From: Escherichia coli | GTDB taxonomy: Bacteria; Pseudomonadota; Gammaproteobacteria; Enterobacterales; Enterobacteriaceae | Assembly (NCBI RefSeq): GCF_003018255.1 | Contig: NZ_CP027440.1 | Direction: 5' to 3' (one strand) | DNA length: 64,000 bases | Shown: positions 1,375 through 1,691 of the stretch, piece after piece | Numbering within the stretch: position 1 is the stretch's first letter | Layout of the letters: every line of letters starts with the position of its first letter | Program-made: the position numbers and the translations under genes | The notes under the pieces: generated by a model | Told to the model about the DNA's origin: nothing | The model's input: the letters and a program-made list of their open reading frames with translations, nothing else | Database searches by the model: none

Positions 1375-1691
1375 ATCCAGCTTGCAATGAAAATAACACC
1401 CGCCTGGTATGTGCGCGTTTTCTTATTCCACAAACTGCAAGGAGGTAAATCATGACAAATCCTTTATCAATGACTCTTTGCAGACCTTTCCAGGATTAAT
1501 TCTTTTTTTCTTGCCCTGGATTCGTCTGCCATTTCCTGATTTTTATATTTATATACTCTAAATAATTCGAGTTGCAGGAAGGCGACAAGCGAGTGAATCC
1601 CCAGGAGCTTACTAAAGTAAGTGACTGGGGTGAACGAACGCGGTCGCAGTACATGCAACTTGAAGTATGACGAGTATAAATGGAATGATAC

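Follow-up and report, generated by a model that had tools for sequence, protein, structure and literature searches.

The yafP-prfH spacer of this Escherichia coli strain most probably consists of two independent elements, a leader of the rtcB2-prfH operon and an ERIC insertion. An open reading frame (ORF) of 15 codons with a strong Shine-Dalgarno (SD) sequence appears from comparison across genera to be the leader of rtcB2-prfH, an operon for ribosome repair; this leader is widely conserved, has gone unannotated, and probably senses stalled ribosomes. The segment at 1552-1678 is an ordinary ERIC/IRU repeat. The SD with its ORF and the hairpin at 1599-1630 are both real features, and they are unrelated to each other. 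Positions are those of the window, the whole 64-kb stretch of DNA that was analyzed. The features of the spacer and of the start of the operon, in which the pairings are those of the model set out below, are as follows:

1382-1410, + strand: putative sigma-70 promoter of leader-rtcB2-prfH, with −35 TTGCAA (1382-1387), a 17-bp spacer, and −10 TGGTAT (1405-1410)
1435-1445, + strand: segment 1, CTGCAAGGAG(G), in which the conserved CUGCAA lies 5′ of the leader SD, AAGGAGG (1439-1445); complementary to segment 2
1452-1499, + strand: leader ORF, 15 codons plus TAA, encoding MTNPLSMTLCRPFQD, with a strong SD
1474-1485, + strand: segment 2, CTCTTTGCAGAC, codons 8-12, covered by inverted repeats I4 and I2
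1490-1519, + strand: inner hairpin, CCAGG (1490-1494) with CCTGG (1515-1519), part of inverted repeat I2
1524-1536, + strand: segment 3, GTCTGCCATTTCC, in which GTCTGC pairs with segment 2 and CCATTTCC plus GTCTG pairs with segment 4; its core in the four-segment model is GUCUGCCAnnUCC, and it also includes CCAUUUCC
1552-1678, no strand assigned: ERIC/IRU miniature inverted-repeat element of 127 bp, made up of TA (1552-1553), a 123-bp core TACTC...GAGTA (1554-1676), and TA (1677-1678)
1682-1697, + strand: segment 4, the rtcB2 ribosome-binding site (RBS) and start region GGAATGATACATGGGC, with the ATG at 1692
1692-1946, + strand: rtcB2 remnant followed by decayed prfH, from the ORF list

Conservation of the leader ORF and state of the operon

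An earlier note on this DNA had drawn attention to AAGGAGG at 1439-1445, six nucleotides upstream of an ATG at 1452, to the 15-codon ORF that this ATG opens, and to a T-rich stretch beyond the ORF. All three are present, the last at 1501-1512; as a possible terminator tail the T-rich stretch was rejected, a terminator scan having found none. The pattern AAGGAGG-N4-9-ATG occurs once in the window, with 0.56 occurrences expected and at least one match in 40 of 100 shuffles, and the SD and ORF are not significant from the window sequence alone. The pattern is no better than chance there, and it is the comparative data alone that show the SD and ORF to be real.

Seventeen loci, ranging from Escherichia to Proteus and Pseudomonas, were picked by the RtcB protein alone and without regard to the leader, and in all 17 an ORF of 13-15 codons with a strong SD lies directly before rtcB2-prfH. 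The genes 5′ of the leader differ among the loci (dinB, yafP, C92 peptidase, amidohydrolase, DeoR, AsnC, and M23 peptidase). A DNA-pattern scan of metagenomes returned 114 matches, about 60 of which are then followed by RtcB, and these RtcB-linked matches represent 41 distinct leaders with peptides of 13-16 aa. The Pseudomonas and Metapseudomonas leaders are clearly homologous to the enteric leader. Comparison with genomes carrying an intact rtcB-prfH pair, which the earlier note had proposed, found the small ORF kept and the hairpin absent in many. E. coli ATCC 25922 and CFT073 are examples of strains whose operon is intact. An explanation that treats the SD and mini-ORF as a chance occurrence or a nonfunctional relic, and the hairpin as a regulatory stem-loop or small RNA peculiar to this locus, would be consistent with the chance expectation of the pattern in the window, with the spacer bearing no annotated feature in MG1655 or PGAP genomes, and with a structural-entropy screen that listed a K-12 interval overlapping the hairpin as a riboswitch-like candidate (PMC4448311). 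The comparative data already refute it, and we consider it scarcely credible: the ORF is kept in every one of the unbiased loci together with covarying structure, and the hairpin is part of a repeat that recurs at unrelated loci and is missing here in intact-operon strains.

What is conserved is the RNA and not the peptide. The N-terminal half of the peptide is variable, and the part that is conserved is the C-terminal LC(R/G) region. The Leu at segment 2 is encoded by CUU in nearly every leader, the exceptions including UBA3516 (Phe UUU) and Citrobacter (Ile AUU), and the Arg there, where present, is encoded by AGA or AGG even in GC-rich Pseudomonas; in three metagenomic groups the string CUUUGCRG is read in another frame, giving FA instead of LC. 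Retention of the CUU and AGR codons even in Pseudomonas, together with the differing frame of CUUUGCRG in three groups, places the constraint at the level of RNA. If the ORF instead encoded a functional small protein whose sequence mattered rather than the act of translation, recurrence of the C-terminal motif LC(R/G)xxQ(D/E) across the Enterobacterales would be accounted for. This is very improbable given that the N-terminal half is unconstrained, that length varies from 13 to 16 codons, that the shared string is read as FA and not LC in three groups, that rare codons are conserved in GC-rich genomes, and that the conserved codons are exactly those forming the arms of covarying helices. The possibility of a leader peptide or attenuator raised in the earlier note holds for the SD and ORF, which are kept before intact rtcB2-prfH in many genera together with overlapping RNA helices, and a leader peptide is known to control the homologous operon of Pseudomonas aeruginosa (PMC12057347, PMC13041342).

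Most of 22 tabulated loci have an arrangement TTGCnn/17/TAnnAT at a distance of 40-53 nt upstream of the leader ATG, behind differing upstream genes, and it is this recurrence that suggests a promoter role for 1382-1410. The hexamers match only 7-9 of 12 consensus positions, and in a promoter scan they failed the criteria, falling below the 9 of 12 threshold in E. coli. In the window, the second position of the −10 hexamer (1406) is a G in place of a near-invariant A: six Escherichia whose operon is intact have TAGTAT, and TGGTAT is shared by the window, K-12, and BL21, in each of which the operon has decayed. Both K-12 and an identical genome have the rtcB2 and prfH remnants annotated as pseudogenes, of incomplete RtcB and of prfH, and position 1688, within segment 4, is A in the window and G in K-12 and intact strains. 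Because rtcB2 and prfH are truncated, the −10 box reads TGGTAT, and segment 4 carries the G-to-A change, the leader system in this strain is a fossil. The suggestion in the earlier note that the ORF might be a relic of a decayed module is right in the sense alone that the leader has outlived its own operon in this strain.

Pairing segments and proposed control of rtcB2-prfH

Segment 1 is nearly invariant in sequence across genera and forms inverted repeat I4 with segment 2 (1435-1444 with 1474-1483, 90% complementary). Segment 2 can pair either with segment 1, through CTCTTTGCAG, or with segment 3, through GCAGAC. The 1:2 helix, between the leader SD and codons 8-10, is present in the minimum free energy fold of the whole leader in 13 of the 14 species folded, UBA3516 folding otherwise, and is almost invariant, so that covariation cannot test it. 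The 2:3 helix, between codons 10-12 and the downstream segment, was scored on an alignment that had been fitted to the competing structure. It is 88% paired in place and no more than 60% paired on sliding; it scores 0.261 for covariation, versus 0.192 in shuffles (0 of 500), has four compensatory pairs among its seven, and shows 21 double-change cells where 10.1 are expected (0 of 500 shuffles). Within the inner hairpin lie the leader stop codon (1497-1499) and a loop rich in pyrimidines; across 43 leaders its cells are 88% paired, and three of five pairs have changes on both sides. Covariation among the enterics alone was uninformative, the sequences being too similar, and a MAFFT alignment of all genera misplaced segment 3 in Proteus and Pseudomonas, so a covariance-model alignment was used.

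Segment 4 (GGAwTGGuauATGGGC) is nearly invariant across genera, and the 3:4 helix appears in 16 of 16 single-sequence folds of the 3′ part; state A overall is 83% paired versus at most 46% when slid. Independent support for the 3:4 helix is weak: RNAalifold on a sequence-only alignment of the 3:4 region recovered just UGCC:GGCA and not the proposed helix, z-scores of single sequences lie between +0.2 and −4.1, most of them not reaching −2, and its covariation derives from the structure-fitted alignment.

We infer a mechanism based on switching between 1:2/3:4 and 2:3 pairing. The leader transcript (about 1382-1536 plus 1679-1697) would carry a strongly initiated 15-codon ORF within four pairing segments. 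With the leader free of ribosomes, or with a ribosome at the late codons or the stop, segments 1:2 and 3:4 would pair and the rtcB2 start would be shut. A ribosome held at the leader start or early codons would cover segment 1 and leave segment 2 free for segment 3, and 2:3 pairing would strip the outer part of the 3:4 helix and render the rtcB2 start site accessible. The held ribosome could be one poisoned by a drug or one cleaved by colicin E3 at the decoding center; a cut ribosome would initiate on the strong leader SD, fail at the first codons, and hold segment 1. The leader would in this way report impaired ribosomes and switch on the enzymes of rescue and religation, and if this is true the repair enzymes would be made only when broken ribosomes are present.

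When the leader SD through codons 3-5 was blocked in folds of 24 leaders, in imitation of a bound ribosome, opening the rtcB2 start was predicted to cost a median of 6.4-6.7 kcal/mol instead of 10.7 kcal/mol, and with codon 7 through the stop blocked the cost stayed at 10.2-12.0 kcal/mol; one of the 24 leaders, that of Pseudomonas YH-1, behaved in the opposite way. An earlier blocking model that covered only ±15 nt around the P site, with the SD uncovered, gave almost no change in RBS accessibility. The modeled effect is one that depends on the assumed ribosome footprint, which weakens the mechanism claim.

In translational attenuation of ermC and cat, a stalled leader ribosome remodels 1:2/3:4 pairing into 2:3 and unmasks the downstream RBS. 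The leader studied here resembles those systems, in the blocking model, in having a short ORF that is predicted to be well translated and a transition from 1:2/3:4 to 2:3 that would unmask an RBS. It differs in that segment 1 is the leader's own SD and not a coding segment, in that no drug-dependent arrest peptide is evident, since the N-terminal codons vary, and in that the genes controlled repair ribosomes rather than modify rRNA or drugs. The output of the enteric leader is probably translational, by masking of the RBS, rather than exerted through an intrinsic terminator.

Transcription attenuation, either intrinsic or Rho-dependent in the pyrimidine-rich spacer, would instead have the position of the ribosome on the ORF decide whether RNA polymerase reads through. 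Beyond the stop codon all leaders have a stretch rich in C and U and poor in G, and beyond segment 3 comes a U-rich tract; the stop codon lies in the loop of a conserved hairpin. This arrangement resembles tnaC-type control. The P. aeruginosa model has a 3:4 terminator (PMC13041342, PMC12057347). Against this, a scan of the window and of the E. coli, Klebsiella, and Metapseudomonas leaders found no canonical intrinsic terminator and none of the 3:4 type, the U tract begins 7-11 nt past the helix and is not adjacent to it, and segment 4 coincides with the RBS and start codon, which fits translational control. We consider transcription attenuation the less likely mode of action, with perhaps one chance in three or slightly less. 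The fuller reading, that in Gammaproteobacteria from Escherichia to Pseudomonas RtcB2-PrfH has in this widely conserved leader a dedicated sensor of ribosomes that are damaged or poisoned, and that such leaders form an uncurated family of cis-regulatory RNAs working by translational attenuation, is offered tentatively, and we give it a little less than an even chance of being correct as a whole.

Comparison with the P. aeruginosa armZ leader

In P. aeruginosa, control of armZ (RtcB-like) and PA5470 (prfH) rests with a 13-aa leader, PA5471.1, and works through ribosome stalling, and a stop codon at codon 3 of PA5471.1 activates expression (PMC12057347, PMC13041342, PMC3516279). Expression of ykfJ in K-12 has been reported to be inducible by 4-azaleucine (PMC3516279). 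Comparing our leader with the published description of PA5471.1, we conclude by analogy that it is likely to be the enterobacterial counterpart. Both are short leader ORFs immediately before an RtcB-family gene coupled to prfH, both have a promoter-like element that appears constitutive, and both are modeled with four pairing segments forming alternative structures. PA5471.1 has 13 codons as published, as do the leaders of Pseudomonas spp. found here, and the enteric leaders have 15. Events at early codons in P. aeruginosa (Q3 amber, Q3/F4) turn expression on (PMC13041342, PMC12057347), as the present model would predict for early stalls.

The two systems differ in several respects. The enteric leader lies about 65 nt from rtcB2, compared with about 250 nt in P. 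aeruginosa, where the PA5472-PA5471 intergenic region of PAO1 measures 367 bp; the enteric leaders are without a canonical terminator and have the RBS and start codon as segment 4, their output being probably translational; and the downstream protein is a ribosome-repair ligase in enterics and an anti-repressor of MexZ in P. aeruginosa. Translational attenuation here would thus differ from the terminator model of P. aeruginosa, and we found no description of it in the E. coli RtcB2-PrfH literature searched. ArmZ was not among the best 120 homologs of the M. otitidis protein, and no PDB entry was found for an ArmZ structure.

RtcB2-PrfH has recently been shown to repair ribosomes damaged by colicin E3, rescuing and religating those cut at the decoding center (PMC9223846, PMC9304027). 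In the E. coli RtcB2-PrfH literature searched, the operon was expressed from foreign promoters, and nothing was found on its own control. A conserved stall-sensing leader would be a concrete, testable answer to how the cell decides on RtcB2-PrfH synthesis, and it would tie the repair module of E. coli to a leader that has long been studied, the antibiotic-inducible one of armZ in P. aeruginosa. Leader-peptide control of an anti-repressor was described in a 2025 review as apparently unique to MexXY (PMC12057347). No account of the enterobacterial leader was found in the literature on ykfJ or on leader peptides with RtcB, and a literature search with the peptide string gave no match. The enterobacterial rtcB2-prfH leader is undescribed in the literature searched and absent from Rfam. 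Annotation pipelines miss such a leader, which is unannotated in MG1655 and PGAP genomes and is without an Rfam model. The ORF is expected at about 253239-253286 of MG1655.

The ERIC element between segments 3 and 4

The stem-loop at 1599-1630 folds as the earlier note had described it (−19.7 kcal/mol, z = −5.35, with 0 of 200 shuffles folding equally well), and it forms the tip and center of a 127-nt imperfect palindrome at 1552-1678, which folds as a single extended hairpin of −59.1 kcal/mol (z = −8.84). The terminal arms (I1) and core arms (I3) were both detected as inverted repeats, and the ends read TATACTC...GAGTATA. The boundaries of the element were set by homology to the ybhJ-ybhI and narG-narK copies and by the terminal arms. 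The reverse complement of primer ERIC1R, GTGAATCCCCAGGAGCTTAC, matches exactly at 1593-1612, and ERIC2 matches with one mismatch at 1615-1636, with no match expected by chance for either; the primer sequences were confirmed against the literature, in which 246 papers contain both. Megablast searches with the 72-bp core found a median of two places per genome, among them ybhJ-ybhI and narG-narK, and a 326-bp query found a median of six.

The element shares with ERIC/IRU (RU-1) sequences a length of 127 bp, an imperfect palindrome that gives a long stem-loop, TA-ended terminal inverted repeats, and a TA target duplication (PMC2229807, PMC3184786). It is likewise intergenic, co-oriented within a transcribed region, present in several copies per genome, and found in full and internally deleted forms. 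It differs in nothing essential and is peculiar only in having landed inside the regulatory loop of a leader. The stem-loop, which the earlier note had called conserved-looking, is accordingly not a conserved part of the regulatory region and is the core of an ERIC repeat; the proposal that it is a locus-specific small RNA or attenuator hairpin is contradicted by the copies of that core at other loci. Many E. coli that have kept the operon intact lack the hairpin, as do the other genera that were compared, save for K. spallanzanii, in which a short ERIC-like insert of its own occupies the corresponding position.

Among Escherichia the ERIC site is full, short, or empty. The empty site of E. 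whittamii, ATTTA-TA-AATGG, differs from the filled site, ATTTA-TA-[core]-TA-AATGG, by the absence of the core and one TA. ERIC entered at a TA within the AT-rich loop that separates segments 3 and 4, and its RNA is predicted to fold on itself, so that segments 3 and 4 would stay adjacent. The element may not be neutral, however, if its co-transcribed hairpin alters mRNA stability or the 3:4 interaction and hence rtcB2-prfH expression in carriers. De Gregorio 2005, as summarized in PMC2229807 and PMC3184786, is credited with the observation that co-transcribed ERIC RNA in Yersinia alters mRNA stability via RNase E in an orientation-dependent manner; the element lies inside the regulatory loop, and it is found in full in one intact-operon Escherichia strain and in short form in several. 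It accompanies intact and decayed operons alike with no clear association, and in the predicted fold the element closes on itself as a hairpin, so that the flanks can still pair; we regard such an effect as unlikely, at about one chance in four.

In a search of Rfam, which the earlier note had suggested, neither the region nor the ERIC-free leaders of four species gave a match at the gathering threshold; the four leaders gave no matches, and the region gave only subthreshold ones, to V_AS5 on the ERIC element and to STnc350 and Ysr49 with E about 1. V_AS5 (Vibrio RNA AS5, RF02818) aligns over its full length to 1551-1674 with 44.9 bits and E = 1.3e-8, a score far below the gathering threshold of 96 bits, and the case differs further in that the host is Escherichia and the match is to a repeat and not to a locus-specific antisense RNA. 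The match probably reflects ERIC-like repeats in Vibrio. The element also serves as a caution that a conspicuous hairpin may be a mobile repeat with no connection to the genuine regulatory element beside it.

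Leader Reading Frame Upstream of rtcB2-prfH

The spacer lies in the yafP-ykfJ/prfH region of Escherichia coli, in which ykfJ is the K-12 counterpart of rtcB2, and its surroundings are arranged as follows:

Window start: dinB, followed by yafP
922-1374: yafP, followed by a 317-bp spacer
1439-1445: AAGGAGG, the Shine-Dalgarno (SD) sequence, as read in the sequence
1452-1499: leader open reading frame (ORF), ATG at 1452, encoding MTNPLSMTLCRPFQD and a stop codon
1692: ATG of an RtcB-family gene remnant, with a decayed prfH next to it
Beyond the decayed prfH: pepD, on the opposite strand

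In a query-identical genome and in K-12, both laid out as in the window, rtcB and prfH are annotated as pseudogenes and the spacer is blank; no spacer annotation was found in the E. coli records inspected (MG1655 RefSeq and PGAP-annotated genomes). The end of dinB is overlapped directly by yafP in this strain (window 922-925; compare retrieved locus L002, 1344-2038), and the yafN-yafO toxin-antitoxin pair found between these genes in K-12 and BL21 is missing, as it is from SCEC020022 and JNE23-011. Strain S1-SRB-02-B carries two genes between prfH and pepD, one for a metal-dependent hydrolase and one hypothetical (its locus L005, 5503-6310), both missing from the other E. coli loci examined.

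The AAGGAGG, the ATG at 1452, and the 15-codon ORF described in an earlier note were all located at these positions, but the SD-ATG pattern alone proves nothing in the window because it was seen once against 0.56 occurrences expected by chance. Seventeen rtcB2 loci were picked by protein similarity only, eight from a species-level genome collection and nine from selected homologs, representing Escherichia, Salmonella, Citrobacter, Klebsiella, Kosakonia, Cronobacter, Intestinirhabdus, Limnobaculum, Providencia, Proteus, Pseudomonas, Metapseudomonas, and the unclassified Enterobacteriaceae genome UBA3516. All 17 contain an ORF of 13-15 codons with a strong SD just upstream of rtcB2, as the leader-peptide option of the earlier note would have it. 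The genes upstream of the ORF vary (yafP, dinB, C92 peptidase, amidohydrolase, DeoR, AsnC, and M23 peptidase), indicating that the leader ORF travels with rtcB2. It is very likely that the 15-codon ORF is a conserved leader of the rtcB2-prfH operon. Among Escherichia variants, a near-invariant stretch extends from the putative promoter to just before the insertion site of an enterobacterial repetitive intergenic miniature mobile element (ERIC/IRU).

The leader peptides, exemplified by MTNPLSMTLCRPFQD, MTLYSLNALCRHFQH, MNTDFQNALCRPSQE, MQQIQLNILCRRIQD, MTTINMNTLCGQSQK, and MQTLITLCRSRLA, keep an LC(R/G) block and have a variable N-terminal half. A metagenome scan with a DNA pattern consisting of an SD block plus CTTTGCRG returned 114 sites, about 60 of which have an RtcB homolog within the next 150-250 nt; 41 distinct leaders were obtained from these. 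Three metagenomic groups read CUUUGCRG in another frame (..PFA.., ..SFA.., and ..FFA..), the conserved leucine is encoded by CUU in nearly every leader, and arginine, where present, by AGA or AGG, GC-rich Pseudomonas included for both residues; this codon usage and the shift of frame point to a constraint acting on the leader RNA. Rfam has no family for the leader, and nothing on it turned up in the E. coli papers on RtcB2-PrfH, in Baranov 2006 on prfH, or in full-text searches, a scope that did not extend to Morita 2009. The Salmonella small RNA STnc350 gave a weak Rfam match overlapping the promoter and the leader start (1386-1458, minus strand; E = 1.7), which is very probably due to chance, at 17 bits against a gathering score of 60.

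The Spacer Hairpin and the ERIC Element

The hairpin at 1599-1630 folds as the earlier note described (−19.7 kcal/mol, z = −5.35), and it is the tip of a single long imperfect palindrome at 1552-1678 (−59.1 kcal/mol, z = −8.8, in a fold of 1551-1690). Positions 1593-1612 are identical to the reverse complement of primer ERIC1R, and 1615-1636 differ from primer ERIC2 at one position; for neither primer would a chance match be expected. The two primer sequences occur together in 246 papers. The spacer query finds a median of six matching places per E. coli genome, and the 72-bp core also occurs in the ybhJ-ybhI and narG-narK intervals. Alignment of these two copies set the element ends at TA-TACTC...GAGTA-TA, a length of 127 bp. 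Published ERIC/IRU elements are about 127 bp long, end in TA, carry inverted repeats at their termini, duplicate their target, and give a transcript that folds into a long stem-loop (PMC2229807, PMC3184786), and the window element agrees on these points. In an Rfam scan, the sole signal on the hairpin region was Vibrio AS5, which matches the whole element below threshold. A structural-entropy screen lists a K-12 interval overlapping the ERIC as entry 98 of 100. The hairpin is almost certainly ERIC.

The full element is present in the window, K-12, and Escherichia sp. MOD1-EC7003, a short element lacking 1571-1642 in BL21, SCEC020022, and Escherichia sp. E1V33, and none at the site in S1-SRB-02-B, SCPM-O-B-8794, and E. 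whittamii. The hairpin is thus ordinary and not conserved at this locus; of the interpretation in the earlier note, the leader peptide stands, and the conserved-looking local hairpin does not. Taking the core and one TA out of the filled site gives the empty site of E. whittamii, ATTTA-TA-AATGG; this sequence comparison indicates insertion at TA with target duplication. The piece missing from the short form is exactly 72 bp, and its junction is flanked by the near-repeat GTTGCAG/GTCGCAG (retrieved locus L003, about 2690), suggesting deletion by slippage, although the full form could instead have arisen by gain.

Pairing Segments of the Leader RNA

Four pairing segments recur among the leaders, at these positions in the window:

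1435-1445: segment 1, CUGCAA(A)GGAG, including the leader SD
1474-1485: segment 2, CUCUUUGCAGAC, codons 8-12
1524-1536: segment 3, GUCUGCCAnnUCC
1682-1697: segment 4, GGAwUGGuauAUGGGC, the rtcB2 ribosome-binding site (RBS) and start

Helix 1:2, accompanied by an inner hairpin with the stop codon in its loop, is predicted in minimum free energy folds of 14 species, UBA3516 excepted, and helix 3:4 in 16 of 16 folds of the 3′ part. Segments 2 and 3 can form an alternative helix, GCAGAC with GUCUGC, with compensatory variants GCAGGC:GCCUGC (Limnobaculum), GCGGAC:GUCCGC (Proteus), GCGGG:CCCGC, GCAGGUCUU:AAGACCUGC, GCAGAUCAG:CUGGUCUGC, and GCAGUCG:CGACUGC. Forty-three leaders were aligned with a covariance model built on the 1:2 and 3:4 structure. 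In this alignment, not fitted to 2:3, helix 2:3 reaches 88% pairing, compared with no more than 60% when slid. It has 21 double-change cells, compared with 10.1 in the shuffles, and its covariation score is 0.261, compared with 0.192; none of the 500 shuffles reached either value. The 1:2 and 3:4 state, to which the alignment was fitted, has 83% of its pairs formed, and no more than 46% when slid, with modest covariation (0.091 against 0.079; 1 of 500 shuffles). Helix 3:4 is the least secure. RNAalifold on a sequence-only alignment recovers only its UGCC:GGCA pairing and its single-sequence z-scores lie mostly between 0 and −2.

The AT-rich loop that separates segments 3 and 4 holds the ERIC, which in the predicted fold of the complete leader of the window makes a separate hairpin, leaving the flanking segments paired. 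A short insert of its own resembling ERIC, TATACCCAAATAATTCGAGTT...CTTGAAGTATGACGGTTATA, occupies this place in Klebsiella spallanzanii (its locus L018, about 2430-2495); no such insert was found in the K. oxytoca loop. This loop evidently tolerates insertions.

The Proteus hauseri rtcB2 starts AUGGAC (Met-Asp) rather than the AUGGGC of nearly all others (locus L027, 1501-1509), and its segment 3 is GUCCGC, not GUCUGC, so that pairing with the start region is kept. Intestinirhabdus alba has about 170 nt inserted between the leader stop and segment 3, within the 2:3 loop (locus L022, about 1275-1465), and its prfH is apparently split into ORFs of 144 and 61 aa with no Pfam match (2637-3312). 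Pseudomonas-type leaders, unlike enteric ones, have an additional hairpin after the stop codon and before segment 3 (L028, 1420-1450; L029, 1415-1445; metagenome loci such as L087 and L080), whose arms vary yet remain complementary (e.g., GCCGCC...GGCGGC and CCGUC...GACGG). In a GC-rich metagenome group with leader MSHSTRPFAVVHA (L055, L098, L125, L141, L045, L048, and L070), the reading frame across CUUUGCAG differs, helix 2:3 has the arms GCAGUCG:CGACUGC, and the stop codon lies about 190 nt upstream of rtcB2, a long spacer resembling that reported for P. aeruginosa.

Candidate Regulation and Its Decay in This Strain

The homologous P. aeruginosa operon of armZ (RtcB-like) and PA5470 (prfH) is under a 13-aa leader, PA5471.1, on which ribosome stalling remodels the RNA to switch armZ on and in which a stop at codon 3 activates (PMC12057347, PMC13041342, PMC3516279, bioRxiv 10.1101/2024.11.08.622684); the regulatory principle and its P. 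aeruginosa member are already known. The output of the enteric leader probably differs, by RBS masking. No canonical terminator was found in the leaders scanned, which favors translational control in enterics, with Rho-dependent or noncanonical termination as a possible alternative.

Ribosome occupancy was modeled in 24 leaders by forbidding pairing of covered nucleotides and computing the energy needed to open the start region of rtcB2 (−13 to +6). For ribosome-free leaders the median cost was 10.7 kcal/mol; it was 6.4-6.7 kcal/mol when a ribosome occupied the SD through codons 3-5, and 10.2-12.0 kcal/mol when one stood at codon 7 through the stop codon. One leader behaves oppositely, and a cruder footprint model gave almost no change. 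We tentatively propose early stalling that unmasks the RBS, a reading that falls a little short of probable. Without translation of the leader, or with its complete translation, rtcB2 would be shut, and a ribosome held at the leader start or early codons would open it. Ribosomes cut by colicin E3, with a cleaved decoding center, should initiate but elongate poorly, and they would be a signal fit for a repair operon. Ribosome repair is the function of RtcB2-PrfH (PMC9223846, PMC9304027).

Most tabulated loci have a promoter-like TTGCnn/17 bp/TAnnAT located 40-53 nt upstream of the leader ATG, matching only 7-9 of 12 consensus positions. The −10-like hexamer is TAGTAT in six Escherichia with an intact operon. 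In the window (1405-1410, with G at 1406), K-12, and BL21, where rtcB2-prfH is truncated, it is TGGTAT, without the key −10 A; in these nine genomes only, uncorrected for phylogeny, promoter loss may accompany operon decay. Segment 4 in the window also has a G-to-A change at 1688. With the TGGTAT hexamer, the truncated operon, and this change, the leader in this strain is a well-preserved fossil.
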